DNA of 61,408 bases, from positions 1 to 61,408 of the IMG/VR virus record IMGVR_UViG_3300020392_000014; one strand, 5' to 3'. Shown here in pieces: positions 37,115-54,398 of the stretch (positions are counted from its first letter, which is position 1; every line of letters starts with the position of its first letter). A program made the position numbers and the translations under genes. Under the pieces are notes generated by a model that had not been told where the DNA came from, searched no databases, and was given only the letters and a program-made list of their open reading frames with translations. This DNA is from a virus (lineage: Duplodnaviria > Caudoviricetes).

Positions 37115-38968
37115 ATGGCAGTTGATCCAAGTAAATATCAAATATATGCCGAGAAAGATTTAAACAGAGCTCAAATAGATTGGGGCACAGTAGGTAAAAC
37201 GTTATCTGATGGTTTAATAAGTATAGCAAAAGACAGAGAGGCAAGAAAACAACAGATTGCGGATGACACTGTTGATGCTATGAATAAATTAAGTGAAGTT
37301 CCTGATGTTAATAATCAGACTTTATCTAAAATGATTATTGATGGTAGCGACCAATCTAAACAAGAGCTTCAAGCAAGAATGGATTTAGTTAGGCGTGGTA
37401 TTATAAAGCCAAAAGATTACAAGCTTTTTATGAACGCTCAACAAAATGGATACAAAAGCCTTAGCACTGTAGTTCAAAATTACGATAAGTATTACACTGC
37501 AAAAATGGAGGCTATTGAAGCAGATACACAATCTAAACTAGATGCAGCCGTAGCAAAAAGTGTTGAACAGTTTGGTAATATAAATAACAAAGTATTATGG
37601 ACAAATCCTGTAAATGGTCAATTACAACTTGTCACAATGGAACAAGACGAAGATGGTAATTACACCAAAATGCCAGATCCAAACAAGAATCCCGAAAAGT
37701 TTCAAAATCCAAACACCATAAACACAATAATGCGTTTCAATGAAAAAAAGAAAGTATTACAGGATGAAGCAAAAAAGGTAACAGATACTATTGCATCATA
37801 TATAAGATCATCTGTTAATAACGGTGTTGTGAAAAAGACAAAAGATTTTAGGGATCAATTAATTGGAGGTAAGACGTATGATGAATGGATGAAAAGCCAA
37901 ATAGGTTTTTTGACCGCAACAGATAATGATGTAGCTCAGATATTGTCTAATTCAGGCGAGTATACATTTACATTTTCTAAAGAAGAGGCAGATAAAGACC
38001 CTAGTAAAATATTTGTTGACAATTCTTCTGGTAAACCTGTTTTAAGTATTTCTGACAAAGCAAAAGAAAGAGCTGAACAGTTAGCTAGAGAAGCTATTGA
38101 CTCTCAAATAGACAGCGAGATAACTAAAACTCCTGGATTTGACCCGCAAAGAAGTTCAGCCGCAGATGATAGGGATAAGAAAGATAGAGGAAAAAGAATC
38201 ATGGCCACCCTTAATAATTTAAGAGGTGCACAAACACCTGAACAAATGAGGCTTGCTGTTCAAGAGCTACAAGGTATTACAGGTTTAAGATTTAAAGATA
38301 TAGAAGAGATAAGAGAAGAGGTAACAATAAATGGTCAAAACAAAACAATAACTACTGGTGTAAACTTAAATCTTGACGGAACAGTTATACCTATGAGGTT
38401 TGGAGAAATTGATCCAGACACAGGAGAGTTTAAACCGACCACCGGAGCGGAATTTGCACAAGCTAATTATGAATATTTAGCTGACGATAAAGCTAGCACA
38501 GCTGATATTGCTTTAAAAGAATTTGGTGGCTCAGATAAATTCTTTAAAGATGTATCATTCGATCTTGAAAAAGGAACTAGAAATTTGAGTTATGGAACTA
38601 AAGGTAGTGTAGAATTTAATAAACCCTATAACTCAGGAGGTAAATCAACTAGTTTAAAAGATCAAATAATTAAAGCTTATACGGATGCAGACGATGCTTC
38701 TTTTGATATCAACCCTCTTGCGCCAGGAGTTGACATGACTGTATTAAAAAATAGTACCGAATCGGCGATTAGATCGGCATTTGAAGGACAAGGATTTAGT
38801 GTACCTAAAGGCTTTAAAGTTACTGATGATGGTAGAGATTTAGTAATTGAGGGTGTAGATAAATTAGGTGTTCCAGTAAAAATAAAAGCAAAAGATATAG
38901 GAAGCGTATCTACCGGCGTATCAGCACTAGAAGCTGCTGTTCAACAATTTATATCTAAATTTAATTAA
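37115..38968 (+). CDS. Internal virion / ejection protein 2
   Basis: 617-aa helical protein in the podovirus ejectosome position. Confidence 0.6.
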   Translation: MAVDPSKYQIYAEKDLNRAQIDWGTVGKTLSDGLISIAKDREARKQQIADDTVDAMNKLSEVPDVNNQTLSKMIIDGSDQSKQELQARMDLVRRGIIKPKDYKLFMNAQQNGYKSLSTVVQNYDKYYTAKMEAIEADTQSKLDAAVAKSVEQFGNINNKVLWTNPVNGQLQLVTMEQDEDGNYTKMPDPNKNPEKFQNPNTINTIMRFNEKKKVLQDEAKKVTDTIASYIRSSVNNGVVKKTKDFRDQLIGGKTYDEWMKSQIGFLTATDNDVAQILSNSGEYTFTFSKEEADKDPSKIFVDNSSGKPVLSISDKAKERAEQLAREAIDSQIDSEITKTPGFDPQRSSAADDRDKKDRGKRIMATLNNLRGAQTPEQMRLAVQELQGITGLRFKDIEEIREEVTINGQNKTITTGVNLNLDGTVIPMRFGEIDPDTGEFKPTTGAEFAQANYEYLADDKASTADIALKEFGGSDKFFKDVSFDLEKGTRNLSYGTKGSVEFNKPYNSGGKSTSLKDQIIKAYTDADDASFDINPLAPGVDMTVLKNSTESAIRSAFEGQGFSVPKGFKVTDDGRDLVIEGVDKLGVPVKIKAKDIGSVSTGVSALEAAVQQFISKFN

Positions 38969-41900
38969 TGAATAAATATAAAACACCATCAGGAGATGTT
39001 CTTACAGAAGAAGAATTAAGGTCAAGATACGGCGACCAATTTGATTCTTTGGTCGCAGACGGTGTATTGACTTTGGTAGAAGGAGAAGAGGCTGAAAAAA
39101 AAAATCCAGTCGTTACCTCAGGTTCAGATTCGGAGCAGGAAAATACGGTTTCCACTACAAATCTAAACAATACTCCTGGGTTTTCGGATTCTTCCGATCC
39201 CATAGAAATAAATGAAGATGTAAACTTTGATATAAGTCTTCCAAAAAATCAACAAACTCTAGTTGAAAATAAAAGTAATTTAGATATATTAAACTCCATT
39301 GGATTTTTTGACGATAACAAACCTGAGATGGTTGTTTTGGATGAAAAAAATCAAACCAAAGAAAAATCATATCAAATTAAAGACCCAATTACAGGAGAAT
39401 TTAATTTAAAAAAAGAGTCGGAAATACCTGAGCCTGTATTGAAAGCTATAAAACTGCATGAAAAAGCTAATCCAAAAGTTGTAGATACTGAAGAGGTTAT
39501 AATTACCGAAGAAGATTACACTAATCCTGATAAAGTTGACTCAAAAATTTTATCTCAAAATAATATAGATGAAGAAGATTATTTAAAGTGGGAGAAAAAA
39601 AATATTAGACCTGAAGGTTCTGTTTATAAATTTTTAAAAACTCTTTTACCTAGTGATGAAGGTAATCAATATGAAATGGAAAAAAGGCAGTATGAAAAAT
39701 TACAGTCTTATAATGCTTCAAAACTAAATAATATTACTAGTGCACTTTCCGCAAATGAAGCAGCACAAAAATTAACAACTAATCCAAATGATATTAGAAG
39801 ATTAAGATTAGAGGCGGTAAATTTAAAAAAAGAATTTATGGAAACTTACTCCACAATGGAGTCAGCGATAAATTTATTTCCGGTTTATAAAGAAGAAGAA
39901 ATAGATTCTGATTTGAGAAAAAGAAAAGAACTTTATCAAGCAGTTAAATCAGGAGGATTAAGGGAGTTTACGGGGGGAGGTTTAGAATTATTGAAAACAG
40001 GAGCTACAGCTTTGACTTCTTTTGCTGGTAATTTTATAGGCGGGATACCTGGAGCTGTCGATCAAAGACTAACAAAATTTGGATACAATAAAAAAGGTCT
40101 ACTTGCCGGTTTAAGTGATATGTTTGTAGACTCTAGTGAAGCTATTGAAACAGAAATAGGTGAAACACAAAGACCAGCTTTTTTAGAAGGCAAACCTGTA
40201 ACTTATAATTCACAAGAATTTATAGTTGATGCAAACGGGACAGTGTACGATGCAAAATCCAATATTCGAATGGATGGAATATTACCTGACAGTGAGATAA
40301 AAACAATAATAAACAGATCAAAAGATGTCCCCAATAGCACTATTAATTGGACAGGAGGTTCAGTATTGACAGGCGGTGTAAATACTTTGATGAATTTATT
40401 TGCTCTTATACGAACTGGAGGTAAGGTTAATAAATCAACTGGCCTTGAAAAGATTTTTAAACCTGGTACTGCAGGAAAAGTTGGAATGGGAGTAGCATCT
40501 TTTACAAGCGGGGTAGTGAGTAATGTTGAAGACATACGAAGTCAGTTGGTAGCAACTGGTATGGGTGAGAATGAAGCAATGGAAATAGCTGTTGATGCTG
40601 GCCAAGCTATAGCAACTTTAGATGGTATATTTTCTGGTATAGCTGGTAGTAACGAACAGTTATTAATTGGTTTCCAAGGTATTAAAGATCAAGTAAAAAA
40701 TTTAGCAATTAAAGAAGGAAAAAAGTTTACAAAAAAACAACTAGTGGACAAAGGAATTGCTTTAGGTAAAGAAAACTTTAAAGAATTATTTGTTGAAGAA
40801 TTGCCTGTTTATTTTACAGAAAAAGCAATTAATAATTTAGTTAATCAAAAGGTTGGGAATACAGTATTAGACCAGAAAATTACAGCAGCTGGTGTTTTAG
40901 AAACTGCAGTAATGACTATAGGGGCTACATCTACACTAGGTTCTAAAAATTTATTAACAGGTAACAAAAGAAAAGACTTAGTAAGAACACTAGCTTCTGA
41001 TGTTCAAGATTTGCAAAAAACATTAAATGTTTTAGTAACAGAAGGTTCTTTAAACAAAGAACAAGCTGCGAATGCTTATACAGAGATTTATAACATGAAA
41101 GCAGCTGAACTAAAAACTAAAGGGACTGTTAAAATGTCTAAAAATGTTGAAGAAGCCTCGGACTTGTTAACGCAAAGGCAAAATCTTATAGAACAAAGAG
41201 AAGGTTTAGAAGGGCCATTAAAAGAAGAGTTAGATAAAAGAATTGAGGATGTAGATGCTCAAATAAAAAAATTACAACAAAGAGATATTACAGAAGCACA
41301 GTCTATTATAGATAAACAAAAAGATAGTAAAGATAAAGTCGAAGTTACAAGAGAGGAAGCTGTTCAGGCTTTCAAGGCTGAAAATGAATTTAGGGTAAAA
41401 GCTGGATTACCTGTTCTTATAGAATCAGAACAAAATATTACAAAAAAACAAAATGAATTAATTAAAGATAAACAAGATGCCATTCAAAAGTCAAGCACAG
41501 AGAAAGTGGATGTACAAGAACAATCCACAGATGGCCAAACGGTGGGAGAAAGAGACACCGAAGGGGCCGTTACCCAACAGGGTAAAAAAGAAACCGAAGA
41601 TGTCCTTGTTGAAAGCAAGGAGGCGGAAGTAACACCAGTTAGGGAAAAAATTGATCAACCTTTTCAGGTACCCAATTCAAGAATTGATGTAACATTAAAT
41701 CAAGATGGTACGGCAAAAGTGTACAAAAGGGGTACAAATCAAACTGTTAAATATGTTCCACAAAAAGCTAGTAAATATATTTTAACAGATGTAATTGATG
41801 TAAACGAAGGTAATCTAGCTACTATACCTGAAGGCACACCGGAAGGAGATGTTTTTATAGAAATTGCTGACACATCAAATAATGTTTATGAAGTTGTGCA

Positions 41901-44900
41901 AGCTATAAAACAAGTAGAGGATAGTATGGTAGATGCGGAAATGGAAACTGCTGAAGGGGGTATATTTAATATATTACAATTAAAGTTCACTCCTGAAAGC
42001 TGGAAGCGTATAACTGGTGTATCGCCAAAAGAATCTGGCGTTTCTAATTTTTGGATAAGTAAAAAGGATGGAGTAAGTATAGAGGACGGATGGGTTGATG
42101 TGGCTCCTGAATTAAGTATAGATATGGTTATTGATTTTATCGAATCTAATCCTACTTTAGCGGATGTAAAAAATTTACAAAAAGGAGGCCTTAGTCAAGA
42201 TTTAGTGGCTTTAAAACAAAGATTTAAGGAGTTAACAGGTTTAAGTGCAACAAAGTTTAATCTAAATACAGTTTTATCTATCGACCCAAATAGAGAGCCG
42301 TTGAGAGTAACAGAAACAAGAAATGTAGAGCAATTAACTAGAGAGTCTCTTGACCCTAATGTAGATGACTTTGGGAAAAAGAAAGGGCCATCAGCAGAAA
42401 AAATTACAGGTAAAAAAATAAAGAAAGTCAAAGTAGATGAACAGTCTGCATTGAAAGACCAGATAAGATTAGAAGCTAAAGCAGCAAGAGATGCAAAAAA
42501 AGATCAAACCAAAAGACGAAGAGGTTTAGTAAAATCTATAAAAGGTTTGTTGAAAGAAGGTAATATTACAAACAAAAAAGCTTTATCATTGATAAAAAAA
42601 GTTTCTAATGTAAACTTAAATAACGCAAAAAAAGTGCAAGACGTTATTGATTTTATAGAGAAATCTTTAAACGATTCTTCTTATTCTGCAAAACTTTCAA
42701 AAGCTAATGCTTTGATTAAGTCTATCAAAAAAAATTTAAAAGGTAAAGAAGCTGCAATGTCTGATTCAGCAAAACAGTTTGTGTTAATAGACCCTAATAC
42801 AGTAGAGAATATAGACACATATCTAAATTTTGCAGAAAACATTAAAAATGGTTTAATGAAAACCAAAAGGACAGGTAAGGGGGTAAAAATATCAAAACCT
42901 TTTGATGTCAAAAAAGTTGACGCATATAGTAAAAAACAAATTGACTTACAAAACAAAAGAAATTATGAGTTGGCTAAAGAATCGTTTGAGTTACTTACGG
43001 GATTAGAAGCTGGAGAGTTAACGTTAGACGAAATGAAAGAAGCTTTGTATGATATAGAAGGTGAAGCTAATGATCCTGGCAAAAAATCAGAGCTGTTAGC
43101 AAAAAACAAAGAAGCGGTTATAGATAAGGCTATTAAAAATGCATTTCAAAATACTAAAATAAATATTAAGGGTAGTATAGAAGCTGGAGATGTAGAGTTA
43201 AATAAAGAAAAAAAAGAATTAATTCGTGATTTTTTAAACATGGACTTAAAATTACTCAGCACGGCTCAAAAGATGGCTGCCTTAGACTCCATAATTAATT
43301 TTGAAATAAATGAATCGACAGGCGGCATGGAGTCTATACTTAGGCAATATGTTGGGAATAAAAACATGATTAAGATGAATAATGAAAACATCAAATCATC
43401 TTTAAAAAGCACATGGCTAGGAAGGATGTGGAATAAACATTTATCGACATTGCCAAATGTTTTTGAATTAATGTTTGCTTCACAGGAAAAAGCAAGAAAG
43501 ATAACTAAAGCACTTGGTCTTGATGGGGTAATAGATGGTTATGCTAAAGCAGAGAAAGAAGCAAATGATGTAGAGCAAGATTATGCTAATGTTTTTGCAA
43601 AAAAGAAAATGAAAAACGGTATTTACTTCGATGAGATGAATGACCTAGAAAGAGGGGTGTTGGCAGAGGTTAGAAGATTTACACCAGGTACGGAAGTAGA
43701 ACAGCAAAACGAGTTTGATGTAAGTAAAAAATTAATAGATCAAACAATAAAAAGACTAGAAGCTTCTAAAGATTCTAACGATAAAGCAAAAGCTGAAAAG
43801 CTAAGGGCAGTATATGATAATATATTAAAAGATTCAAACAATATAAGTGAAGTAGAATCTAAAGTTGACCCTGTAAATTTAGAAGGAGTAGAATATGTTA
43901 CTCAAATTTGGGCAAACAAATATCAAGATTTAGCTGACACTTCTTTAAATGTCTATAATAGAAATTTAGGAAAAGACATTAACTATACTCCTAGAAGCGT
44001 ACAAACATTAACTCAAGAGGACAAAACACCTGACATCACTGAACCTGTATTTAATCCAGAAAATCTTTCTAAAAGCCCTTATGATAAGGAGACTGGAGTT
44101 TTGAAGGTAGCCACAAAGCCACCTACTTTACCAGAGGGCAAAGTTTTAAATTTAGGCTTTGATAGACAAAATTTAAGCAATTATAAAGCAGCTTTAACAG
44201 ATATATATACCGCTCCTTCTATACAGCAAATTAAAGGTGCGCAACAATCAGAATATTTTAAAGAAGTATTTCCTAATGAAAACGCAAGAGATATAGTAAA
44301 TCTGAGAATAAAAAATTATGTAGACTCAAAAAGGGGAAAAAGGTTTTTTAACGCAAAAGATAAAATAGCTCTTGACGCTATGAACAAATTAGCCACTATG
44401 GGTGTAGTAAAAGCTTTAGGTGGTGTAACTCAACCGTTTAAACAAATTGTACCTATATTCAACACTAGTATTAACGCTGGCCCCATCAATACAATTAAAG
44501 GTGTGGAACTATATCTTTTTAATCCTGATGCTAGAAAAGCAATAGATAATTCTGGGTTAGCCATAGCTAATAGAGGTATAAAAGCTCAATCTGATTTGGA
44601 GTCTGTTGATAGCAGAATAGATAATACTACTCGAACTAAAGGTGGTAAATTATTAAAAGCGTATGATAACTTAAATAAAACAATTTTGCAAAAAACTTTA
44701 GTTGATCCTGATGTAGGCACTGCTAAAGCATCATTTTTAGCATACTATATTCAAGCGATGGACAAAAAGGGTGTGAGTTTAAATGAAATAGACTGGACGC
44801 AACCCTTAGAGAAAGACGAATCTCGTTTTGCTCAACAACAGGTTGATAGACAACAGAACACTTCTGACCAAGATTTGCAAGGAGATTTGTTTACCAGTCA

Positions 44901-45756
44901 GGCATTAACAAAACAAACTATAAGAAAAGTATTATTTCCTTTTGCAAATTTTTTATTGAATCAAAAAACTAGAATGTATTCTGATATTAACACATTGTTT
45001 AGAAACCCCACTGCTTTACCTGGGGACAAGACCGCCGCACTTAAATCTTTAGCTGGTTTAGGTGTAGAAAATGCTACATTCAATGCTATAGGTTTAGGTA
45101 TATCTGCCATGCTAGCTAACACAGTATCATCTTTGATTGGTATGGATGAAGAGGAAGAGGGAACCTTTTCTGAAAAAATAGAAAAAATAAGAGAAGCAGA
45201 AAGGAAAAGACTACAAAATCAAATAATTGGTAGAGGCGGCAATCTTATAGCTGATATAGTTTCACCGCTTCCTTTTTTAAACGATGAGGTTTTATCAGTA
45301 ACAAATTCCTTAGTCGGTTTATTTCAAGATGGAGGTAAAGATGATTTTAAGTTTTTTGTAAATACCAACAGAGGGTTGAGTGAACAGTTAGGGGTATTAG
45401 GAATAGGTGGAGAAAAATTACAAAGACTAACAGAGATGATTAGAATAGCTCAGACGGGTGAGGTAACAACTGAGTATGGCGGTAAAAAAAGTACCAAAAA
45501 ACTGACAAAAGATGCTCAAAATAAAATTCAAAATGTAGCAGTGGTTTATGCTTTATTTATAGCAGGTGGAATACCATTCTCTGAAGTGGGGTATATGTCT
45601 GAAAAAGCACTTAGAGACTTGAAAAAAAGAAAACAACCAGGGCCTAAAAAATTTAAAGAGGAGAAAAAAACTTCATTGTCTTTAAAAGGAAAAGGAAAAT
45701 TAGAAAGCGGTGCTTTAAATAAAAAAAATAATAAATTACAAAAAGGTAGATTGTGA
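38968..45756 (+). CDS. Large internal virion protein (2262 aa)
   Basis: Last large late gene; helical with Gly/Ala-rich hydrophobic segments; no recognisable RNAP motif. Confidence 0.7.
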   Translation: MNKYKTPSGDVLTEEELRSRYGDQFDSLVADGVLTLVEGEEAEKKNPVVTSGSDSEQENTVSTTNLNNTPGFSDSSDPIEINEDVNFDISLPKNQQTLVENKSNLDILNSIGFFDDNKPEMVVLDEKNQTKEKSYQIKDPITGEFNLKKESEIPEPVLKAIKLHEKANPKVVDTEEVIITEEDYTNPDKVDSKILSQNNIDEEDYLKWEKKNIRPEGSVYKFLKTLLPSDEGNQYEMEKRQYEKLQSYNASKLNNITSALSANEAAQKLTTNPNDIRRLRLEAVNLKKEFMETYSTMESAINLFPVYKEEEIDSDLRKRKELYQAVKSGGLREFTGGGLELLKTGATALTSFAGNFIGGIPGAVDQRLTKFGYNKKGLLAGLSDMFVDSSEAIETEIGETQRPAFLEGKPVTYNSQEFIVDANGTVYDAKSNIRMDGILPDSEIKTIINRSKDVPNSTINWTGGSVLTGGVNTLMNLFALIRTGGKVNKSTGLEKIFKPGTAGKVGMGVASFTSGVVSNVEDIRSQLVATGMGENEAMEIAVDAGQAIATLDGIFSGIAGSNEQLLIGFQGIKDQVKNLAIKEGKKFTKKQLVDKGIALGKENFKELFVEELPVYFTEKAINNLVNQKVGNTVLDQKITAAGVLETAVMTIGATSTLGSKNLLTGNKRKDLVRTLASDVQDLQKTLNVLVTEGSLNKEQAANAYTEIYNMKAAELKTKGTVKMSKNVEEASDLLTQRQNLIEQREGLEGPLKEELDKRIEDVDAQIKKLQQRDITEAQSIIDKQKDSKDKVEVTREEAVQAFKAENEFRVKAGLPVLIESEQNITKKQNELIKDKQDAIQKSSTEKVDVQEQSTDGQTVGERDTEGAVTQQGKKETEDVLVESKEAEVTPVREKIDQPFQVPNSRIDVTLNQDGTAKVYKRGTNQTVKYVPQKASKYILTDVIDVNEGNLATIPEGTPEGDVFIEIADTSNNVYEVVQAIKQVEDSMVDAEMETAEGGIFNILQLKFTPESWKRITGVSPKESGVSNFWISKKDGVSIEDGWVDVAPELSIDMVIDFIESNPTLADVKNLQKGGLSQDLVALKQRFKELTGLSATKFNLNTVLSIDPNREPLRVTETRNVEQLTRESLDPNVDDFGKKKGPSAEKITGKKIKKVKVDEQSALKDQIRLEAKAARDAKKDQTKRRRGLVKSIKGLLKEGNITNKKALSLIKKVSNVNLNNAKKVQDVIDFIEKSLNDSSYSAKLSKANALIKSIKKNLKGKEAAMSDSAKQFVLIDPNTVENIDTYLNFAENIKNGLMKTKRTGKGVKISKPFDVKKVDAYSKKQIDLQNKRNYELAKESFELLTGLEAGELTLDEMKEALYDIEGEANDPGKKSELLAKNKEAVIDKAIKNAFQNTKINIKGSIEAGDVELNKEKKELIRDFLNMDLKLLSTAQKMAALDSIINFEINESTGGMESILRQYVGNKNMIKMNNENIKSSLKSTWLGRMWNKHLSTLPNVFELMFASQEKARKITKALGLDGVIDGYAKAEKEANDVEQDYANVFAKKKMKNGIYFDEMNDLERGVLAEVRRFTPGTEVEQQNEFDVSKKLIDQTIKRLEASKDSNDKAKAEKLRAVYDNILKDSNNISEVESKVDPVNLEGVEYVTQIWANKYQDLADTSLNVYNRNLGKDINYTPRSVQTLTQEDKTPDITEPVFNPENLSKSPYDKETGVLKVATKPPTLPEGKVLNLGFDRQNLSNYKAALTDIYTAPSIQQIKGAQQSEYFKEVFPNENARDIVNLRIKNYVDSKRGKRFFNAKDKIALDAMNKLATMGVVKALGGVTQPFKQIVPIFNTSINAGPINTIKGVELYLFNPDARKAIDNSGLAIANRGIKAQSDLESVDSRIDNTTRTKGGKLLKAYDNLNKTILQKTLVDPDVGTAKASFLAYYIQAMDKKGVSLNEIDWTQPLEKDESRFAQQQVDRQQNTSDQDLQGDLFTSQALTKQTIRKVLFPFANFLLNQKTRMYSDINTLFRNPTALPGDKTAALKSLAGLGVENATFNAIGLGISAMLANTVSSLIGMDEEEEGTFSEKIEKIREAERKRLQNQIIGRGGNLIADIVSPLPFLNDEVLSVTNSLVGLFQDGGKDDFKFFVNTNRGLSEQLGVLGIGGEKLQRLTEMIRIAQTGEVTTEYGGKKSTKKLTKDAQNKIQNVAVVYALFIAGGIPFSEVGYMSEKALRDLKKRKQPGPKKFKEEKKTSLSLKGKGKLESGALNKKNNKLQKGRL
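39095..39215 (+). other. Candidate programmed -1 frameshift / slippage site (A10) and trans-frame extension
   Basis: A10 at 39095-39104; the -1 frame reads KSSRYLRFRFGAGKYGFHYKSKQYSWVFGFFRSHRNK-stop. Confidence 0.5.
41477..41632 (+). CDS. Nested +1-frame 51-aa basic protein MPFKSQAQRKWMYKNNPQMAKRWEKETPKGPLPNRVKKKPKMSLLKARRRK
   Basis: ATG to TAA inside the 2262-aa gene; A/T-rich leader with A at -3; local GC rise; resembles free-standing small phage proteins as recalled. Confidence 0.7.
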   Translation: MPFKSQAQRKWMYKNNPQMAKRWEKETPKGPLPNRVKKKPKMSLLKARRRK

Positions 45757-46016
45757 TGAAGTTTTTTGATGAACATACCTGTATGCTCCATAGTTACTAT
45801 GTTTTAACCAACAAAGTTCCTTACGAAACATTACTAGAAAAAGGTAGTAGTGTGGCTTTGATATTTAATCCTACTAAACCTGTAATAGCTATGGATGATG
45901 ATGTTTATGATGTGCTGATTGAATATTTTGAACAAGAAGAAGATTATGAAAAATGTCAAGAGCTACTTGATTGCAAAAAAATTAACATGCACTTTAAAAA
46001 AAGTGAGTTAGTCTAG
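45753..46016 (+). CDS. Small protein with UVR-like C-terminal motif
   Basis: EYFEQEEDYEKCQEL; overlaps the 3' end of the convergent gene. Confidence 0.55.
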   Translation: MMKFFDEHTCMLHSYYVLTNKVPYETLLEKGSSVALIFNPTKPVIAMDDDVYDVLIEYFEQEEDYEKCQELLDCKKINMHFKKSELV

Positions 46017-47100
46017 CTACCTGTCCTAATTCTTTATGATGTATAAAACCTTCACAAGCTCTTGGAGCTCCAGTATAACCTTTTCTCGCATGCCAACTAT
46101 CGGATGATGATGGCGATCTCATGTATTCAACTGTAACCCCTATATAATCTTTAGCATCTCTCCATTTGTATTTTATTTTATGGTGCAGATGATGTAAATA
46201 CCAGTACCTGGTCTTTGTAGATGCCCACAGTTCAGGTCTTTCTTGAGCCATAAGTAGGGGTAGATTATCAAGCCTAGCACCATCACCATGTTCCAACCCT
46301 ATTAAAGACGTGCCGTATTTATAATACTTTCTGTGAGCAACCGATATATCGAATGAAACATCATGAGCATTTCTAAACCATGATTGAAGGGTGTGCGCCA
46401 AATGAAAACCTGATTGATAGTCATGATTACTCATGCTATGCACTACGTCGACTTTAGCAACTTTTCTTAATATTTCAACACATTTTACATAAAGCTGTAA
46501 AGCCTTTTCATAATGTTCCCACCATTTTCCGTCAGTATCTTGACGTGTGCCCTTTGTGGTTGTGTTATAAACATTGTCTACATGTAGTACATCATTACCA
46601 ATGCAAAATAGTATTTGTTCTATTTTAAAGCCTTTAGCTTTATGTATTAATCCATTTACACCTTCCAAGACCCTATCTATAGCAATTTTTGTATTGTACT
46701 TATCTCCAGCTTCTTTTTCATTTGCATACTTTCCAATATGTATATCAGCTGGATTTATAACCAATAAATGGGGGTCTTTGTTATTGTCATTGCGTTTTAC
46801 GGGTTTGTATTCTGGGGCATGATGTGCTAAAAATTTAGAAACTTTATTGAATATTTCTTTTTCTTTTATACCTAAATTTTCTCTTGTTACAACAGAAAAC
46901 CTATACTCGCCACTGGCACTTTGCCAGTGCTTAACACTGACTACATCTTCAGGGTCAATGCCCCGCTCTTTTAAATGTGTTGTGAGCGCTGTATTATCAT
47001 TTACATTTTCAACGTGGGTGGCACGGTGTTGATATATTAATTCTTCTTCTGCTTTGGATAAACGTAAACGTTTTCCATAGCTTTTGCGTTTAGATTTCAT
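45994..47100 (-). CDS. Calcineurin-like metallophosphoesterase
   Basis: ADIHIG, GND, SNHD, HGD and HHLHH motifs; ATG at 47100 preferred. Confidence 0.8.
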   Translation of the reverse strand: MKSKRKSYGKRLRLSKAEEELIYQHRATHVENVNDNTALTTHLKERGIDPEDVVSVKHWQSASGEYRFSVVTRENLGIKEKEIFNKVSKFLAHHAPEYKPVKRNDNNKDPHLLVINPADIHIGKYANEKEAGDKYNTKIAIDRVLEGVNGLIHKAKGFKIEQILFCIGNDVLHVDNVYNTTTKGTRQDTDGKWWEHYEKALQLYVKCVEILRKVAKVDVVHSMSNHDYQSGFHLAHTLQSWFRNAHDVSFDISVAHRKYYKYGTSLIGLEHGDGARLDNLPLLMAQERPELWASTKTRYWYLHHLHHKIKYKWRDAKDYIGVTVEYMRSPSSSDSWHARKGYTGAPRACEGFIHHKELGQVARLTHFF

Positions 47101-47281
47101 CGGATAAAGATTGAACGAGTTCACTCATCAGCTTCGCTATATTCTGAGCTTTTAATTTTGCTTGATGGTGGTCTCGCTCCATGAGGTCTTCATATAAATC
47201 ATCAACGAGGTCGTGTGATGTATGCGTCACATAATTAATGTGAGATATTGCATTAACGTCGTCTAATGATATTTTACTCAT
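47090..47281 (-). CDS. Hypothetical protein
   Basis: Overlaps the next start; TATCTTTA promoter-like variant at 47354-47361 on the minus strand. Confidence 0.6.
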   Translation of the reverse strand: MSKISLDDVNAISHINYVTHTSHDLVDDLYEDLMERDHHQAKLKAQNIAKLMSELVQSLSDEI

Positions 47282-47327
47282 TTTTATTCCATGGAGTGTA
47301 ATAAGTGGTTTTAGATTTAGTTATAAT

Positions 47328-47513
47328 TTAATTTTGTCTATACACCATTCGTATAAAGATAGTAAAATTTTTAAAAAGTTTTAATTTTAGTTTTTGCCAA
47401 GGGGTTTTTCGTAGAATTGTTTTATCTATTTCTACTTTGTCTAACTTACTTTTAACCTGGGTAAATCCTTTTTCTTTAAAATAGTTTTGGTTTAAATACT
47501 CTAGATAGTTCAT
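47328..47513 (-). CDS. Hypothetical small protein
   Basis: Packed ORF only. Confidence 0.4.
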   Translation of the reverse strand: MNYLEYLNQNYFKEKGFTQVKSKLDKVEIDKTILRKTPWQKLKLKLFKNFTIFIRMVYRQN

Positions 47514-47850
47514 CTTTGTAATTAGTAATTTGATTTGATTTTATGTAACAGTTGATAAGCATTAAATCTAAATATTCATCCATGGAAATTAAAGTAATGT
47601 CAGTGAAAGTTAAATGCCTATGTTTTACTTTTAAAATTTCAACCGCAAATGTTACGACCTCATCTTTAACATTAACTAAACCTCCGTATACATAAGTTGT
47701 TAACTCGTTTGGATTCAAGTCTCTTACATTATCTTCAAGAAATAAAGCAATGGCCAAAGCCGTATCATGGTCAAAAGATTTGAGCTCATCCATAAACTCA
47801 TCTTCAACATCATAACCTTTATCCCTTATATATCTCTGTTTTAAACCCAT
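47476..47850 (-). CDS. Hypothetical acidic protein
   Basis: Packed ORF; start uncertain. Confidence 0.6.
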   Translation of the reverse strand: MGLKQRYIRDKGYDVEDEFMDELKSFDHDTALAIALFLEDNVRDLNPNELTTYVYGGLVNVKDEVVTFAVEILKVKHRHLTFTDITLISMDEYLDLMLINCYIKSNQITNYKDELSRVFKPKLF

Positions 47851-48058
47851 AATTTTTCAACTCCTCCAATCTAAATTCTTGCAGAGGAGTGAGCTTTCCA
47901 TTTGTTTTTTTTATTTCTGAAAACAGTACATCTGCATTTTTTGGGATTGCTATTAAGTCAGGTATGCCATTCTTATTTGTTTTTATAAGCTTCAAAACAT
48001 AATATCCTTCATTCTCTAACTGATCTATTCTTTTTTTCTGTATCTGTTGCTCAGTCAT
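47819..48058 (-). CDS. VRR-NUC domain nuclease
   Basis: TExQIQ...GIPDLI...FSEIK...GKLTPLQ. Confidence 0.85.
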   Translation of the reverse strand: MTEQQIQKKRIDQLENEGYYVLKLIKTNKNGIPDLIAIPKNADVLFSEIKKTNGKLTPLQEFRLEELKNYGFKTEIYKG

Positions 48059-48059
48059 A

Positions 48060-49289
48060 TTACAAACTTAATAAATCCTTTTTGAAATGATTTAGAGTAT
48101 AATCTTTCTTTTTAATAACAGTCTTATATATGTCATGCTCAATTCCTTTTTCCGAAAATATCCAATATAGTTTATTATATTTTCTATCTTTAGTAGTCAT
48201 CCTATCTCTTGATTGCCAATAGCTTGTAGCACTAAAATCTATATTGTAATAAACAAGTGCAGAAGCTAGTTTTAAACTTATACCCTCTCTTCCAGAAACT
48301 ATTTGTAAAGCAATAGATTTAGTAGTTGTGTTAAATTCTTGTATTTCTGTACATATTTCATCCTTATAAATACTTTTTATAGCATTTAATTCCTCTTTAA
48401 ATTTATAAAAAATAGCTATTTTTTTATTTCGAAAAGTAAAATAAATAAACTCAGCCTTTTTATAATCTAATACCATAGAACCCCCCTCCTCAAATTTTAC
48501 AGTACCAGAATAAAGTTGATGAAGTTTTGACATAAGTTTGACAGATGTATCAGCTAGTATAGTATTGTCGTTGCCTTGAACAACTAAATTCTTTTTTAAT
48601 TTTTCTATTATCATATATGTTATCTTATTCATCTTAACAGTTAAAACTTCCTCGTCGGTTGTAACTTTAAATCCCGCTTCTTTTTGTGTCCATGAAATAG
48701 TATATGGCTTCATCAAGTCTAGTATGGATTGTAGACCATGGCTGTAATCTTTTATCGGCATAGAACTAATGTATTTTAATTTTATGTTTGCGTGTACTTT
48801 AGCAAACGCATAAAAATTTCTAAACGAATGAAATGGATTATTGGGTATACCATAAACTTGGTGATACATTTGCACATAAGACTCTGGTGTAGGAGTACCA
48901 GATAAAAGTATCACAAAAGGATTGTTAAGCTTGATTAATTCTTTAACCTGTTTAGCTCTGCGACTAGGTTTAGGGTATGCACCCATACTATGAGCCTCAT
49001 CACAAATAATCATATCATAATTGTTTTTCTCGATCTTGTGTAAAGACTCGTAATTAATAATAGTGATGGAAAAAGAGGGGTTTAATTTATTATAATCGTC
49101 TTGTATACTATATATAGCCTTTTTTTTTGTAATGAACAAGAGGTTTTGAACAGGCAGAAGGCCACTCATACTCAAACTCGTTAACGTCTTGCCTGTCCTA
49201 ACCTCCATGGCAAGATACAAAAACTTGTATTTTTTAAGTATAGGTATGGCTGTGTTAACTATCTCCTGCTGATAATCTCTTAAGTTCAT
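48060..49289 (-). CDS. SF2 (SNF2-like) helicase
   Basis: LRDYQ, MEVRTGKT, DEAH, LSGTP, QSRDR. Confidence 0.85.
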   Translation of the reverse strand: MNLRDYQQEIVNTAIPILKKYKFLYLAMEVRTGKTLTSLSMSGLLPVQNLLFITKKKAIYSIQDDYNKLNPSFSITIINYESLHKIEKNNYDMIICDEAHSMGAYPKPSRRAKQVKELIKLNNPFVILLSGTPTPESYVQMYHQVYGIPNNPFHSFRNFYAFAKVHANIKLKYISSMPIKDYSHGLQSILDLMKPYTISWTQKEAGFKVTTDEEVLTVKMNKITYMIIEKLKKNLVVQGNDNTILADTSVKLMSKLHQLYSGTVKFEEGGSMVLDYKKAEFIYFTFRNKKIAIFYKFKEELNAIKSIYKDEICTEIQEFNTTTKSIALQIVSGREGISLKLASALVYYNIDFSATSYWQSRDRMTTKDRKYNKLYWIFSEKGIEHDIYKTVIKKKDYTLNHFKKDLLSL

Positions 49290-51694
49290 TAAAAATCTAT
49301 TTCTTGTATTTTTTCGTAGTGATGTTTATTTCTAAATATAATCCATCTAGCAGTATCTCTACCCTCCTCTGGCTCGCAGTCATGTTTATATAAATTATAA
49401 GCATGTAGCCATTTGTAAAATCTAATTCTTGATACAGTCATTTTTGCTTTAGGTGCAAAGTCTGGGTTATCATCAATAAAATCCATATACAAATCATGCT
49501 TGTATATTTTTTTATTTACTTTAAGTTTTTCGTTTTCATTTAAACCATCTACAAGACCGCACCACTCAATAAATTCATGGCATGTTTCTGCCGCTAGTTG
49601 TCTAATCTTAAGGTTTACAAATTCACTTTTTATTAAACCTTTATCAAGATAAAGCTGTAAACACTCTATCATAAAGTTGTCAAATTGACACCATTCCTCA
49701 TCATTCCATTCCCCGAACATAAGTTTACCAAACTCTCTTAGTGGTGTTCTGTCTCTCGTATAATATCTTGATAATTCTAATTCCCATTTTCGCCTTTCAA
49801 AAGATGATCCTTTGCCTTTGATAGCATAGTTAGTGGTAATACTAACCTTTGGGGATTTACTAAATGGTATTTTAATTGCATCTTTATTTTTTTTCTCAAG
49901 TGTCAAACCCTCTGTTACAACAGAAAACAACCTTTCAAAATCGAAATACTTTTTTACATCATCAAAGCAAAGTATCTGTGTATCAGCAGATACAAGTTGA
50001 TATGCAAATGATTTTTCAAAATTAAAACTTTTACCATCTATTACGACAAGTTTTTTCATTTGAGCCATTCCATTCATAAATAACCCTTTACCTGTACCTC
50101 CCTCTGGGTTATCAGAAATTACTTCATCATTTAAAATTACTGCGGGCGAATAAGATAAATTTTTCCAACCATGCAAAAGATATCCAATAGTTGATTGCAT
50201 AGATAATATTCTGCTTTCATTTTTACCGCAAATATTTTCTATAAACTTTCTAAAATCACACTGTGTGTTTTCACATTTTATAAAAGCTCTATCAATTACA
50301 TGGTCGCTCCAGACATATCCGCCTAAATCGAGATAATCTATTGAAACAAGTTCATCTTTAGTCACTTTAACTGCACAATTTTTGTAGTATAAGTATGCTG
50401 TATTTTTGTTGTCCTCAATAAAGTAAACATCTATTGATGAAAGAAGTGTTAAAAATTCCTCTCTAAAGTATCTAGTATTTTCTGCAAAGTAATTGTATAC
50501 ACTTACATCATTAATGTCTAACAGATAGTTAAGTATAAAATCTTTAATTTCTTTTTCACTCGTATGGTCAATTAGGTTGTTTGTAACACGAACGAAGACA
50601 TAGTTCTTGCTACCCTGCGGGTTAAATTTATAAAAGCCGTGTTCCTCTAAAAAACTTTTAAAAAAAAAATGTACGATTTTGACTACACCCTTATCGCTTT
50701 TTGTCCAGAACTTGTGATGCGATTGCTCCTCCTCAATTCTGTTTATAACATTATCAATAATAACAGGGTCAACATCATCCTCTAACTCCTCTTTGACTTG
50801 TTTTTTTGTGCCCCCTTGCTTCAACCTAAATCTAATTTGGTTTACTTTATCCTCATCCTCATAATACTTGGTACCAAAGTTTTGTTTTTGTGCATAAGCT
50901 GATTGAATTGTTCGCTTGATTTCTAATTGTTTAAAATCTTTTGTAGCATAATTATTCAATACAAATTCCGCTAAAGTTTGATTAATACCAAAGTCATTAA
51001 AGGCTGAAGCTAGGATAAACACATTTTGATTTCTCTGTCCCTCTATCATAGGGTACTTTTTTTTCCACCATTTAGTTAAAATATCTACAATCTTATTCTC
51101 ATCAGTAATAGGTATTGTAGGTAAATCAACATTTTTATTTATTTCATTAAATTCCTCCTCCTCTATACGATCCCACACACTTGAAGTTTTGTTTATGTAT
51201 ATGAGAGGGTCATACGACTCATAACATACCCGACTTAAGTTCTTAGATGTCTTGTCGAAGTAATCTGAATTAAAAAATGATTGCAAACTTAAAAAGTATG
51301 ACTTGTGGTTTTCTGGTTCCGATGGTATTTTTACCAGAGCTTTCAAACCTTTACCACTTGGAGATATAAAGACAGAGAAAATGTATTTATTTTTTGATAA
51401 TCTTTCTTTTTCTTGAAGCAAATCTCTGTTACTCTTGTAGCCGTCAAAGTCTAAACATATTAGTCCAGAGTGTTCCTCAAGAGAATTGTCGCTTCTTTTT
51501 GTAAACTTACCGCTAAAACACACCGCAGGTAAACCTTGTTTGTAGGTGTTTCGCTGAGTTTTATCTTTTTCTGCTCTTATTTTTTTTACTAAATCTTTAC
51601 TAGATCCTTCTCTGATTCTGTTCAATATAACATGAACATCCCTATAAAAAGGCTGACTTGTAGTCTTAATATCTTTGAATATAGTAATTATCAC
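49289..51694 (-). CDS. Primase-helicase (BT4734/VirE-N primase, PriCT, P-loop helicase)
   Basis: HSGLICLDFD, FISPSGKGLK, EGQRN, GGTGKGL, LCFDD. Confidence 0.85.
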   Translation of the reverse strand: MIITIFKDIKTTSQPFYRDVHVILNRIREGSSKDLVKKIRAEKDKTQRNTYKQGLPAVCFSGKFTKRSDNSLEEHSGLICLDFDGYKSNRDLLQEKERLSKNKYIFSVFISPSGKGLKALVKIPSEPENHKSYFLSLQSFFNSDYFDKTSKNLSRVCYESYDPLIYINKTSSVWDRIEEEEFNEINKNVDLPTIPITDENKIVDILTKWWKKKYPMIEGQRNQNVFILASAFNDFGINQTLAEFVLNNYATKDFKQLEIKRTIQSAYAQKQNFGTKYYEDEDKVNQIRFRLKQGGTKKQVKEELEDDVDPVIIDNVINRIEEEQSHHKFWTKSDKGVVKIVHFFFKSFLEEHGFYKFNPQGSKNYVFVRVTNNLIDHTSEKEIKDFILNYLLDINDVSVYNYFAENTRYFREEFLTLLSSIDVYFIEDNKNTAYLYYKNCAVKVTKDELVSIDYLDLGGYVWSDHVIDRAFIKCENTQCDFRKFIENICGKNESRILSMQSTIGYLLHGWKNLSYSPAVILNDEVISDNPEGGTGKGLFMNGMAQMKKLVVIDGKSFNFEKSFAYQLVSADTQILCFDDVKKYFDFERLFSVVTEGLTLEKKNKDAIKIPFSKSPKVSITTNYAIKGKGSSFERRKWELELSRYYTRDRTPLREFGKLMFGEWNDEEWCQFDNFMIECLQLYLDKGLIKSEFVNLKIRQLAAETCHEFIEWCGLVDGLNENEKLKVNKKIYKHDLYMDFIDDNPDFAPKAKMTVSRIRFYKWLHAYNLYKHDCEPEEGRDTARWIIFRNKHHYEKIQEIDF

Positions 51695-51707
51695 TTAGTT
51701 AAATGCT

Positions 51708-51794
51708 TGGCACCTACAAAAGAATCGAACTTTTGTTACTCGTCAGTAAATCTCGCCTCCGTACTTAAACGTGTGGCTTTACCAAATTAGGTGC
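51708..51794 (-). ncRNA. tRNA-like element without a canonical anticodon arm
   Basis: Acceptor stem GCACCTA/TAGGTGC, T-arm CAAAAG-TTCGATT-CTTTTG, D-loop-like TGGTAAAGC. Confidence 0.55.
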
Positions 51795-51800
51795 TTGTAA

Positions 51801-52055
51801 TTAAAACGGGTCTATTTCTGTTTCTGTTTCAACAGGTTTTGTTTCAACTTTTTCTGGAGCGACATAAGGTATTTTGACATCTCCTGATTTATAATTATTA
51901 CCCGCTTGGGATACATTATTCCATATGCTCACTTCAAATTCCTCGCCTTTGAACATACCCCAACCTGTAAAATCAGGTTGTTTACCTTCTTTGTCTGTGT
52001 TTGGAAATAATATTATTTTACCTTCTTTATATTCCCTCGGTTTTTTTTCTGCCAT
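51801..52055 (-). CDS. SSB-like OB-fold protein (DUF736-like)
   Basis: KQPDFTG...VSIW; acidic C-terminus ending DPF. Confidence 0.65.
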   Translation of the reverse strand: MAEKKPREYKEGKIILFPNTDKEGKQPDFTGWGMFKGEEFEVSIWNNVSQAGNNYKSGDVKIPYVAPEKVETKPVETETEIDPF

Positions 52056-52227
52056 TTTTTTTAACTTTTATATTTTGTTCCAAAACTTCTATTGTTTGAT
52101 AAATTATTAATTCTTTATCCTCTCGTGTTTCACAAATATTTGGAACTTCTATCTGTAAAACATTTTCTTTTGTATCAATACCTAATGTTTTATAAAACCA
52201 TTTCTGTAACATGCTGAGATATGTCAT
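52027..52227 (-). CDS. Hypothetical protein
   Basis: Bridges the nuclease and SSB genes; start uncertain. Confidence 0.5.
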   Translation of the reverse strand: MTYLSMLQKWFYKTLGIDTKENVLQIEVPNICETREDKELIIYQTIEVLEQNIKVKKNGRKKTEGI

Positions 52228-52927
52228 GTGTTTTGTTTTTGCTGAAATATTTATTATAAACTTGTGTTGCATTAAAAACATTTTGTTTACCATATGCAAG
52301 AAACTCATCAGAGCATGGAGCTTTTAAAACTTGTAAAGTATTTTTATCTATCACTACAAACAACATGGGTTTTTTGAATTGCAATTCATATACATATGCT
52401 TGTGAATTATAACAAAATGCTCTTGCACTTGATCTAAAATTTTTTGAATTACCTGTGGTTTTTAAATCAACGACAAAATCCTCGTGCAAAATATCACATT
52501 TGGATTTCCACATATTACCCTCTATTTCCATGATAGCGGGTACTTCGTATTTGTTATTAGTATCTTGTATAATTTCTGAAATTTCCAACACACTTAATAA
52601 TTTATCTTTACACCTCAGCATAGTATCTCTTTCATGTAGTAACATAACATCATCTTTGTCTAAATTATTTTCTATCAAATAATCCTTAAATTTCTTTGTG
52701 CTTCTTGTCGAGCTGTCAAAGATAGGTATTTTAATAGGTTTGTCTGGCTCTAAAATAATTTGATGAAAATATCTACCCATTAATATTTCTGGACTTTTCT
52801 TTTCTTGTTTAAATTTTTCAGGTTGATAAAGAAGTGTCGAAACATCTGATGCTGATAAATATTCTTTACCAAAATCACCATAATACTTAGTATCATCTTT
52901 TAATTTTTCTAATAAATCAACTTGCAT
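52190..52927 (-). CDS. PD-(D/E)XK exonuclease, RecE/DUF3799-like
   Basis: LSAS, GRYFH, E...KSKCD...VDLKTT, YNSQAY. Confidence 0.8.
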   Translation of the reverse strand: MQVDLLEKLKDDTKYYGDFGKEYLSASDVSTLLYQPEKFKQEKKSPEILMGRYFHQIILEPDKPIKIPIFDSSTRSTKKFKDYLIENNLDKDDVMLLHERDTMLRCKDKLLSVLEISEIIQDTNNKYEVPAIMEIEGNMWKSKCDILHEDFVVDLKTTGNSKNFRSSARAFCYNSQAYVYELQFKKPMLFVVIDKNTLQVLKAPCSDEFLAYGKQNVFNATQVYNKYFSKNKTHDISQHVTEMVL

Positions 52928-53441
52928 GTGTTTTTAATTGAGATTCAACTTCTTTTGTTATGGTATATTTAGTTTCTAATTGTTGAATTATCCATGACAT
53001 ACCTTTTTGCTTATTGTTTACTACAAAATTTAAAACTTTGTCCCAATTATCATCTCCAATTTTTAAAGTGTATGCACCTTTTGGTTTACTATTTTGATTA
53101 GCAATGGCATTTTGTACTTCCTCTGCAGAAGCTACTGAAGTGTCAAGACCTATGCCCATATTTGCAAGAGCTCTCCCCCATGCAGAAGTTTCGCAGTTCT
53201 CTACATAACTTGTTTTATTAATAAAAGTTGATCCTTTCACTTCCTCTGCTATACCTGTGGCAATTTCTCTATCTTGCTCATCTCGTATCGTAGCTTTAAT
53301 TAGAATTGTATCAGGGGTTTTGTCTACAACCTCTGTGGTCAATGAATATTTTGGGTAATTGCTTCGAAAGTATTTTAATCTTTCGTTTACTTCAACATAA
53401 TCTTTACCCTTTATGTTGATAGTTTTTAACTTTTTGTTCAT
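52917..53441 (-). CDS. Single-strand annealing protein (Rad52/Sak-like)
   Basis: KGKDYVEVNERL...ENCETSAWGRALA; adjacent to the exonuclease and SSB genes. Confidence 0.65.
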   Translation of the reverse strand: MNKKLKTINIKGKDYVEVNERLKYFRSNYPKYSLTTEVVDKTPDTILIKATIRDEQDREIATGIAEEVKGSTFINKTSYVENCETSAWGRALANMGIGLDTSVASAEEVQNAIANQNSKPKGAYTLKIGDDNWDKVLNFVVNNKQKGMSWIIQQLETKYTITKEVESQLKTHAS

Positions 53442-53847
53442 ACTCGTTTAGATTTAATTTAATATTTAATTTATTTTTTCTTGCTGTATATTTTTGTAAA
53501 ATTCTTTCTCTCCTATTTTTTAAATTTTGGATATGCTTATCGTTTTTTCTGGTGTTGATTTCTGTTTTTATTCTGTTTTTAATTAAGTTTAATTTAAACT
53601 CATAATTATTTAGCAGAACAAATTCAGTACCCGCACTCCAGCCATACTTGTAAAAATAATCATACTCTTCCTTTGTGCATTCCATAAAATAATCTCCACC
53701 TTTTCCCATATTAAGTATTTCAATTTTTTCTGGAAACTTCAAAATCTTTGCCCCATTGTGCATAACTGATTCCATTTTTTGTGTCTGTGTGTAAATAGAA
53801 TTTGGCACTCTTTTAGCTTGGTCAAAAAGATGAAAAAGATTATACAT
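53404..53847 (-). CDS. Hypothetical protein
   Basis: Packed ORF. Confidence 0.65.
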   Translation of the reverse strand: MYNLFHLFDQAKRVPNSIYTQTQKMESVMHNGAKILKFPEKIEILNMGKGGDYFMECTKEEYDYFYKYGWSAGTEFVLLNNYEFKLNLIKNRIKTEINTRKNDKHIQNLKNRRERILQKYTARKNKLNIKLNLNEYEQKVKNYQHKG

Positions 53848-54133
53848 TTTGAACTTCCTCTATCATTTTTTTATAGTCAGGATCTGTATCTATTAGATTT
53901 TTGGCTTGTTTGTAACCATGAATAATGGTTGAATGTTGAACATCATAGCCATATTCCTTTAAAAATTTTCTTATATACGAAAGCCGAATAGGTCTTTCCA
54001 TACAAGCATAGTAAAGCATTTGTCTTGCATCTACTACATCTCGTTTCTTTGAGTTTTCAAACATCTCGTTCAAACTAAGATGAAATTGTTTTGCGATTGC
54101 ATTTGTGTATTTGTCGAATATTTCTTTTTTCAT
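53840..54133 (-). CDS. Stand-alone DnaA C-terminal (domain IV)-like HTH protein
   Basis: KKRDVVDARQMLYY...LSYI...QHSTIIHG resembles the DnaA pattern RQ..MYL...DHTTV.HA. Confidence 0.75.
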   Translation of the reverse strand: MKKEIFDKYTNAIAKQFHLSLNEMFENSKKRDVVDARQMLYYACMERPIRLSYIRKFLKEYGYDVQHSTIIHGYKQAKNLIDTDPDYKKMIEEVQNV

Positions 54134-54270
54134 TGGATTAAAGTATAAATGTAATAAGCTAATATAATAATTGTAGCAAGAAAACCCACCAATCTAAGCA
54201 GTTTAAATGTTTCATGCTCACTTTCAGGTGTTCTGCCCTGTCTACTTCTATATTGTCTATATCTTTTCAT
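54130..54270 (-). CDS. 46-aa membrane peptide MKRYRQYRSRQGR...TM (not in ORF track)
   Basis: ATGA overlap with the next gene; C-terminal TM. Confidence 0.65.
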   Translation of the reverse strand: MKRYRQYRSRQGRTPESEHETFKLLRLVGFLATIIILAYYIYTLIQ

Positions 54271-54280
54271 AATATTTTAA

Positions 54281-54398
54281 AAGTGAGGTGGACAGGACTG
54301 GAATGTTAGAGATGCACATTGGACTTACACTCTTTTATCTGTTTATCCTGTCTTTCTGGTCTTACCAATTTAGTGCCTTCCAAACTTAGACCTCACTT
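54281..54398 (-). ncRNA. Putative structured ncRNA
   Basis: 9-bp closing stem, nested 7-bp stem and internal hairpins in an intergenic gap; strand inferred from neighbours. Confidence 0.45.

Follow-up and report, generated by a model that had tools for sequence, protein, structure and literature searches.

Conservation of an A10 run close to the 5' end of a giant virion gene

Within a Caudoviricetes virus record from IMG/VR, IMGVR_UViG_3300020392_000014 (the whole record, 61.4 kb long and 34% G+C, is hereafter called the window), a giant gene of the virion block carries a run of ten adenines (A10) shortly after its start. Comparison of this gene with its homologues suggests, with a probability that we put at about 0.8, that the run is a programmed recoding site with a product in the -1 frame, most likely reached through slippage of RNA polymerase; in addition to its zero-frame product of 2262 amino acids (aa), the giant gene would very probably yield a second, short protein by programmed slippage. 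The gene lies on the plus strand at positions 38968-45756, as defined by translation of its open reading frame (ORF) and by 241 homologues, and the run (GAA AAA AAA AAT, E43-N46) fills positions 39095-39104 of the same strand—the place at codons 43-46, near the start of the 2262-aa gene, where a first-pass annotation of the sequence had put it. That annotation had also described a -1 frame that is preceded by a TGA, lacks an ATG, and reads 36 residues to a stop, and translation agrees: the TGA (39093-39095, plus strand) lies directly 5' of the run, such that the hidden ORF is not enterable from upstream in its own frame, and the ORF itself (39096-39215, plus strand), delimited by translation, resampling, and conservation, consists of KKK, a cationic aromatic tail of 36 aa, and a TGA at 39213-39215. 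On recount, the tail holds 11 aromatics (F/W/Y), nine K/R, and no D/E, with all six Phe written TTC and all four Tyr written TAC, just as first reported. Similarly, the GC content initially estimated by hand at ~41% versus ~22% was computed as 41.7% at 39105-39212 and 21.7% at 39241-39300, against 32.7% for the whole gene.

To compare the run among relatives, 77 homologous loci were collected by scanning viral contigs for patterns taken from the C-terminal half of the giant protein, which is conserved; protein identity of these loci to the window ranged down to ~31-35%, and 66 of them hold the 5' end of the gene. A run of nine to eleven adenines was present within the first 600 nt in 62 of the 66 (56 A10, 5 A9, and 1 A11), and removal of duplicates left 52 sites (47 A10, 4 A9, and 1 A11). 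The residues flanking the run vary—EKKN, LKKKD, VKKKD, IKKKD, L/V/I-KKK-D/E, FKKKS, GKKKS, and others were found—and the adjacent codons hold its length at ten, for example with TTA, GTA, or ATA on the 5' side or AGC instead of TCN on the 3' side. No AAG codon occurs at the run site, and the heptamer A_AAA_AAG was never seen there. Given the same residues and the codon usage of each gene, a run of at least ten would be expected at 15.4 of the 52 sites, while it was observed at 48, in keeping with the initial prediction that homologues would conserve the run.

Several controls place this conservation at the level of nucleotides. Other KKK tripeptides in the same 52 genes were never written as A9 (0/159), though AAA makes up 75% of lysine codons elsewhere, and the 350 kb of these genes contain two other A-runs of nine or more. 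In the neighboring SNF2-type helicase, the protein sequence of a TKKKA motif is kept in 39 of 42 unique contexts; its lysines are written with 75 AAG versus 48 AAA codons, and A9 is reached in 1 of the 42. Taken together, the tripeptide and helicase controls indicate that long A-runs are avoided in these genomes except at the run of the giant gene. In an alignment of 26 relatives of the giant protein (A1), just three columns are invariant within the first 200 residues, one of which is K44, inside the run. We conclude from these comparisons that the run is under selection as nucleotides (DNA or RNA) and is not kept by protein sequence or by composition. Chance or composition as the cause of the run and of the open frame behind it was ruled out by the KKK, helicase, and codon-usage tests, together with the resampling described below.

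Purifying selection on the hidden -1 frame

At most sites, the -1 frame remains open for ~30-36 codons after the run, and the position of its stop is conserved. In the window it is open for 37 codons, versus a mean of 9.8 under synonymous resampling of the zero frame (p = 0.0005), and at 37 of the 52 sites it is open beyond the resampling expectation (median p 0.011). At 42 of the 52 sites, the -1 ORF begins just 2-7 codons ahead of the tail, and at none of the 52 does it have an ATG upstream of the tail, which rules out independent initiation and implies that the ORF is entered solely from the zero frame via the run. Peptides of at least 15 aa were encoded in the -1 frame at 50 of the 52 sites (L041 and L042 were left out as too short), and 46 of these were unique. 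The 46 unique tails fall into long and short classes but align well, sharing the motif R-x-Y-G-[IFVW]-...-[WYF]-[FLV]-[FI]-G-[FLIA]; the earlier expectation of an open -1 frame with a conserved G/F/W/Y/R pattern was thus borne out.

Substitution patterns among the 46 tails likewise favor the -1 frame. Mean pairwise identity was 0.358, 0.288, and 0.251 in the -1, zero, and +1 frames, respectively, and the corresponding BLOSUM62 scores per column were 1.66, 0.80, and 0.62; among the 631 pairs with a zero-frame identity below 0.30, these scores were 1.18, 0.21, and 0.22. At the conserved Gly and Tyr columns, entropies for the three positions of the -1 codon were 0.50/0.50/1.61 and 0.15/0.15/0.93, respectively. 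The variable base here is the third of the -1 codon and the second of the zero-frame codon, a pattern that, as judged from the aligned codons, is unexplained by any zero-frame constraint.

The zero frame itself was examined in 13 relatives that share the N-module type of the window, that is, the acidic N-terminal module common to both predicted products (codons 1-42; 38968-39093, plus strand, delimited by translation and comparison with relatives). Zero-frame entropies were 0.61/0.62/1.16 in the module, a profile that we read as ordinary purifying selection, and 0.69/0.79/0.75 in the overlap with the tail. The fall in third-position entropy, from 1.16 to 0.75, corresponds to the suppressed synonymous variation that the first-pass annotation had anticipated. 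Judging by openness and substitution together, the -1 frame is coding and under purifying selection, and the S/T/D/E-rich "linker" of the giant protein in the zero frame is largely the shadow of that frame.

A predicted small protein with a variable head and a conserved tail

The predicted short product is composed of an acidic N-module, KKK, and a cationic aromatic tail of ~34 aa, and would measure 82 aa in the window. Across the 46 unique sites, the N-module spans 35-115 aa with a net charge of -2 to -20, the tail has a median length of 34 aa (24% F/W/Y, 23% K/R, 13% Gly, and 1.3% D/E) with a median net charge of +10.5 when KKK is included, and the whole protein is predicted to span 56-152 aa. 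A profile of the tail (A2, built from 37 tails) was searched against 1.84 billion representative proteins (E ≤ 0.001) and gave 23 matches, of which 22 were proteins of 76-127 aa with a varied N-module, KKK, and a C-terminal tail (P0141 is the one small ORF of the 22 without KKK); the remaining match, a 386-aa repeat protein, was taken as spurious. The architecture of ~82 aa proposed at the outset, an acidic head joined to a cationic aromatic tail, holds across the family and matches small ORFs that have already been called in public assemblies. The tail of the window scores 45.4 bits against this profile, of which it is itself a training member. Ten of the small ORFs were examined further (P0122-P0131); these form singleton clusters, save for one cluster of six members, and each representative is located on a single contig of 582-9069 bp. 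A comparison of the 22 small ORFs with Pfam gave no consistent family, only single scattered matches.

Structure prediction gave the tail three beta-strands in both models computed. AlphaFold2 modeled P0125 (with alignment A3) at a pLDDT of 76, with strands at residues 51-56, 59-66, and 71-79, and modeled the tail of the window (with A2) at a mean pLDDT of 68, with beta-strands at residues 7-13, 16-22, and 27-33; in these models, the tail is predicted to be a three-stranded beta-meander. A Foldseek search of the PDB with the P0125 model returned nothing at E ≤ 0.001 (best E, 1.4), and a profile search of the PDB with the tails returned one chance match (E 1.9). We also considered a likeness to WW domains and set it aside as unsupported—there was no WW match in a Pfam scan of 35 tails at E ≤ 10 and none in the PDB. 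Overall, the tail had no relative in Pfam or among PDB sequences and folds.

In the loci compared (L002-L209), at least eight unrelated N-module types precede the cassette of run plus tail; most of these types consist of two copies of a motif of ~25-30 aa, and the body of the gene after the cassette is also mosaic. With eight types of N-module on one side and a mosaic body on the other, the gene family looks modular on both sides of the cassette.

Run length in further DNA and RNA datasets

DNA scans using the small tail-bearing proteins as queries identified 37 further non-redundant loci (viral contigs plus six genome-contig loci), comprising 36 A10 and 1 A11; in all 37, the giant ORF is in frame with the N-module and the tail is in the -1 frame. 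An additional 41 non-redundant sites came from metagenome contigs (35 A10, 5 A11, and 1 A12). We also compared the region 38500-58400 with assembled (Logan) contigs of three RNA libraries and one DNA run. An RNA-library contig (X20, 38927-39135) and a DNA contig (X5, 38701-40005) both span the run as A10 with no indel, while X13 has contigs ending at 38893 and beginning at 39109.

Possible explanations: polymerase slippage, ribosomal slippage, and others

We propose that most transcripts and ribosomes would pass the A10 and produce the 2262-aa virion protein, and that a fraction would shift one base back into the -1 frame and produce the 82-aa protein, made up of residues 1-45 (the acidic N-module), a third Lys, and a tail of 36 residues in which Arg/Lys, Phe/Tyr/Trp, and Gly are abundant. 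As for the route, we lean somewhat toward slippage of RNA polymerase, and polymerase and ribosome slippage may both contribute. The RNA:DNA hybrid within RNA polymerase is 9-10 bp long. The host enzyme would slip on the ten A:T pairs filling this hybrid and generate an A11 mRNA that is then translated normally; one added A leads into the -1 frame, which is the conserved one. The run reaches the homopolymer length associated with transcriptional slippage (~9 or more A/T, the length of the hybrid), and the two other signs of such slippage, selection on the run as nucleotides and purifying selection on the alternative frame, are also present. Bacterial RNA polymerase slips efficiently at nine A or T, which Thermus dnaX exploits, according to excerpts of PMC5009743. 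We therefore favor the polymerase because ten A:T pairs match the hybrid and bacterial polymerase slips at runs of nine, because the conserved quantity is a length of ten that includes bases outside the heptamer while A_AAA_AAG is never used, and because no local or consensus RNA structure was found.

The same product could instead be made if the ribosome slips, by -1 programmed frameshifting or by sliding on A_AAA_AAA of an unaltered A10 mRNA, a possible route that we rate as less likely than polymerase slippage. The heptamer is in the correct phase in all 18 codon contexts listed, ribosomes are described as sliding on lysine-encoding stretches of A in E. coli (excerpts of PMC4363877), and the window has an AGGAG at 39081-39085, 9 nt 5' of the run. 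This AGGAG presumably resembles the upstream stimulator of E. coli dnaX; however, Bacteroidota, the likely hosts of these phages, make little use of Shine-Dalgarno pairing. Moreover, the heptamer needs no ten adenines, yet bases outside any heptamer are conserved, and A_AAA_AAG does not occur. A conserved hairpin or pseudoknot downstream was not found either: predicted structure in the window was not significant (z -0.89 downstream, at 39105-39225, and z +0.76 upstream), and a consensus fold of 14 diverse sites with RNAalifold contained 0 predicted pairs.

Two further explanations dispense with slippage during expression as the source of a second protein, and both appear very improbable. Under one, the run is a hypermutable contingency tract in which replication slippage switches genomes between A10, encoding the giant protein, and A11, encoding the short one. 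Poly-G tracts serve as contingency loci in Campylobacter phages, 5 of the 41 metagenome sites are out-of-frame forms with A11 or A12, and public protein sets hold the 22 small in-frame ORFs. Nevertheless, the in-frame length dominates strongly, which makes such a tract unlikely: in place of the mixture of phases expected of phase variation, the run is in the frame of the giant ORF at 62 of 62 run-bearing loci and at 37 of 37 loci on viral and genome contigs, and a genome locked at A11 would be without the conserved virion protein of ~2200 aa. The out-of-frame ORFs P0122-P0131, being mostly singletons on single short contigs, are equally well explained by homopolymer assembly error. The other explanation, to which we give as little credence, is that there is no second protein, and that the run attenuates translation of a low-copy giant protein, or serves as a poly-Lys motif of the protein, with conservation in the -1 frame as a by-product. 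In its favor, the protein alignment is invariant at K44, two lineages keep A10 although their -1 frame is not open, and iterated AAA codons reduce protein output (excerpts of PMC4363877). On the other hand, KKK kept at the protein level in the same phages, as in the TKKKA of the helicase, is mostly written with AAG, and a by-product would account neither for the way in which -1 frame substitutions are conservative and its variation falls at third positions nor for the avoidance of -1 stops followed by a conserved stop ~30-36 codons on.

A number of observations weigh against programmed slippage into a functional -1 frame. Among the 66 homologues with a 5' end, the run is missing from four (L053 and the most distant, L076-L078), and in two lineages A10 is kept without a useful -1 frame (0 codons in L041/L072 and 7 codons in L042/L043), meaning that the run can persist without the tail; the tail of L045, which has A11, barely fits the tail profile (15 bits). 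The +1 frame is also somewhat over-open, with 16 of the 52 sites passing the same resampling test, and the alignment behind the Gly and Tyr entropies was built on -1 peptides, hence leans towards that frame. The models of the tail are of moderate confidence (pLDDT 76 and 68) and resemble nothing known. Since the sequences are related, p-values and counts do not represent independent events. At five of the 41 metagenome sites (L130, L131, L132, L135, and L167), the run is A11 or A12, with either an in-frame tail or an out-of-frame giant ORF; these are forms of the kind that give called small ORFs, such that variation or error exists at the level of DNA or assembly. This fraction overstates their frequency because in-frame matches come first in the ranking of the metagenome search; the contigs of four of the five are no longer than ~3 kb, and homopolymer sequencing or assembly error is as likely as a real allele. 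Finally, no shifted RNA was seen among the assembled contigs compared; because contigs drop minor variants and reveal neither starts nor levels, the X20 and X5 contigs neither support nor refute slippage.

In the two lineages without a tail, a shift would free the bare N-module plus KKK; the run may act there by releasing this module or by throttling the giant protein. Elsewhere, we speculate that the short protein could be an adaptor or chaperone of the giant protein, pairing with it via the shared N-module, and that its cationic tail might bind DNA, membrane, or the interior of the capsid.

Genomic context of the giant gene

The ATG of the giant gene overlaps the stop of the preceding gene (TAATG), and the gene closes a plus-strand block in which it is preceded by the large terminase, the portal, and several PHROGs annotated as "virion structural protein." In a large protein collection, its 2262-aa product had 241 homologues at E ≤ 0.001, with ocean surveys the source of many, and it matched 0 Pfam and 0 PHROG families; a profile from 26 giant proteins found no relative in the PDB. 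When four homologues were scanned, two had one domain each, ART-PolyVal in P0077 (36.9 bits) and ParB_N in P0028 (27.9 bits), both positioned in the variable middle of the protein. Given the location at the end of the structural block and these inserts in homologues, the label "ejection module" is plausible for the giant gene. A phage collection compared for cultured relatives yielded no match, either by megablast or by tblastn, for which the queries were the giant protein and a small ORF (the latter at E ≤ 1).

Homologues occur on contigs of ~60 kb binned with metagenome-assembled genomes (MAGs) of Flavobacteriaceae and Flavobacteriales, in a Saprospiraceae MAG (a 3-Mb contig), and in a Gammaproteobacteria MAG (one contig), and the primase of the window carries a BT4734-like N-domain; Bacteroidota are the likely hosts of these phages. 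The Saprospiraceae homologue (L082, on a contig of 3.0 Mb) has an A10 run and a weak tail (18.9 bits) and may be an integrated relative within a bacterial contig. In the window, summed contig depth at 56428-57091 is far over that of the rest of the stretch (3888 in one RNA library and 617 in the DNA run), probably owing to look-alike or low-complexity sequence from other organisms.

Other homopolymer runs in the window

The whole window contains five A-runs of at least ten. Two homopolymers within genes of the minus strand were considered as recoding sites and rejected. A T10 on the coding strand (HFFFK, 50660-50669) lies in the primase-helicase gene at 49289-51694, between PriCT_1 and DUF5906, and is not conserved, as the residues differ and the run is absent in 35 homologue contexts; an A9 on the coding strand (49120-49128), at the TKKKA motif of the helicase gene at 48060-49289, is not conserved either (1/42 contexts). 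A further A9 is found inside the large terminase gene (19022-19030; ACA AAA AAA AAT, TKKN). The A12 at 66-77 and the A10 runs at 54669-54678 and 59569-59578 fall outside ORFs of at least 150 aa and may belong to promoter or terminator regions; at 54669, a contig of the X5 DNA run stops with a loose run of 13 As.

Significance and comparison with known systems

Recoding sites are rare, and most of those known in phages are ribosomal frameshifts located in genes for tail chaperones or capsids. Homopolymer-programmed recoding that gives two proteins with a common N-terminus is known in kind. What is new here is the gene family, the hidden domain, the 5' position of the site in a giant virion gene, and how widely and exactly the site is conserved. 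Full-text searches of open-access papers and bioRxiv returned no account of it. The run is kept, invariant in length, across ~125 non-redundant sites from oceans worldwide, and the conserved overlapping ORF behind it is unannotated and invisible to gene callers, a warning to annotators that in these proteins the S/T/D/E-rich "linker" is largely the shadow of another frame. The family would bring a new small protein domain into phage biology, provides a clean natural system for how run length sets slippage rates in Bacteroidota, and offers a way into how assembly deals with giant, possibly injected, "polyvalent-like" proteins. Tentatively, and with less than even confidence in the whole conjunction, these phages could be a marine Bacteroidota family in which slippage of host polymerase at an invariant A10 makes an unseen small protein from the 5' end of the giant gene, in which an interchangeable acidic N-module is joined to a conserved cationic aromatic beta-meander that has no known relatives, and which serves as an adaptor that loads or releases a giant injected or virion protein; this would be a counterpart of PIPO in double-stranded DNA (dsDNA) phages and, on the literature searched, the first instance in a phage structural gene of programmed transcriptional slippage that is conserved.

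Two phage systems invite comparison by setting or function. Phage polyvalent proteins are packaged in the virion and injected, according to excerpts of PMC5512222; like them, the giant protein is encoded among virion genes and has homologues with ART-PolyVal or ParB_N domains, but the giant protein of the window has 0 Pfam domains, and the words "frameshift" and "slippage" are absent from that paper. In phage lambda, G and GT are likewise two morphogenesis proteins with a common N-terminus and a ratio set by recoding, one end of which binds a very long virion protein, the model for the adaptor role speculated on above (excerpts of PMC5009743). There, however, the shift yields the longer of the two products and is made by the ribosome, at G_GGA_AAG close to the gene's 3' end (excerpts of PMC5009743). 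G/GT has no sequence relation to the giant gene and would be its nearest phage analogy in function, by speculation.

Closer parallels lie in the mechanism. In Thermus thermophilus dnaX (tau/gamma), a conserved homopolymer of hybrid length (a run of nine) is situated within a long ORF, and the slipped mRNA gives a shorter product with a common N-terminus (excerpts of PMC5009743). Unlike that case, the site described here lies 43-120 codons into a gene of ~2000-3400 codons in a phage virion block, the shifted frame encodes a conserved domain of ~34 aa instead of a few residues, and slippage is proposed from sequence comparison. In type III secretion genes of Shigella (spa13 and others), a cellular polymerase slips after ~58 codons to give two products per gene, although the slipped product is the extended, functional one and the genes are chromosomal or plasmid-borne (excerpts of PMC5009743). 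Potyvirus P3N-PIPO was, like the hidden frame of the giant gene, discovered via comparative genomics, as a short, conserved, start-less ORF within a very long ORF that is reached by one added A at an A-run (excerpts of PMC5009743 and PMC4552492). P3N-PIPO differs in belonging to an RNA virus, whose viral RNA-dependent RNA polymerase slips at GA6 (six As) with a frequency of ~2% (excerpts of PMC5009743 and PMC4552492), whereas the giant gene belongs to a dsDNA phage, has a run of ten As, and would presumably depend on host RNA polymerase. By analogy, the systems closest in kind to the giant gene would be Thermus dnaX, Shigella spa13, and, above all, P3N-PIPO.

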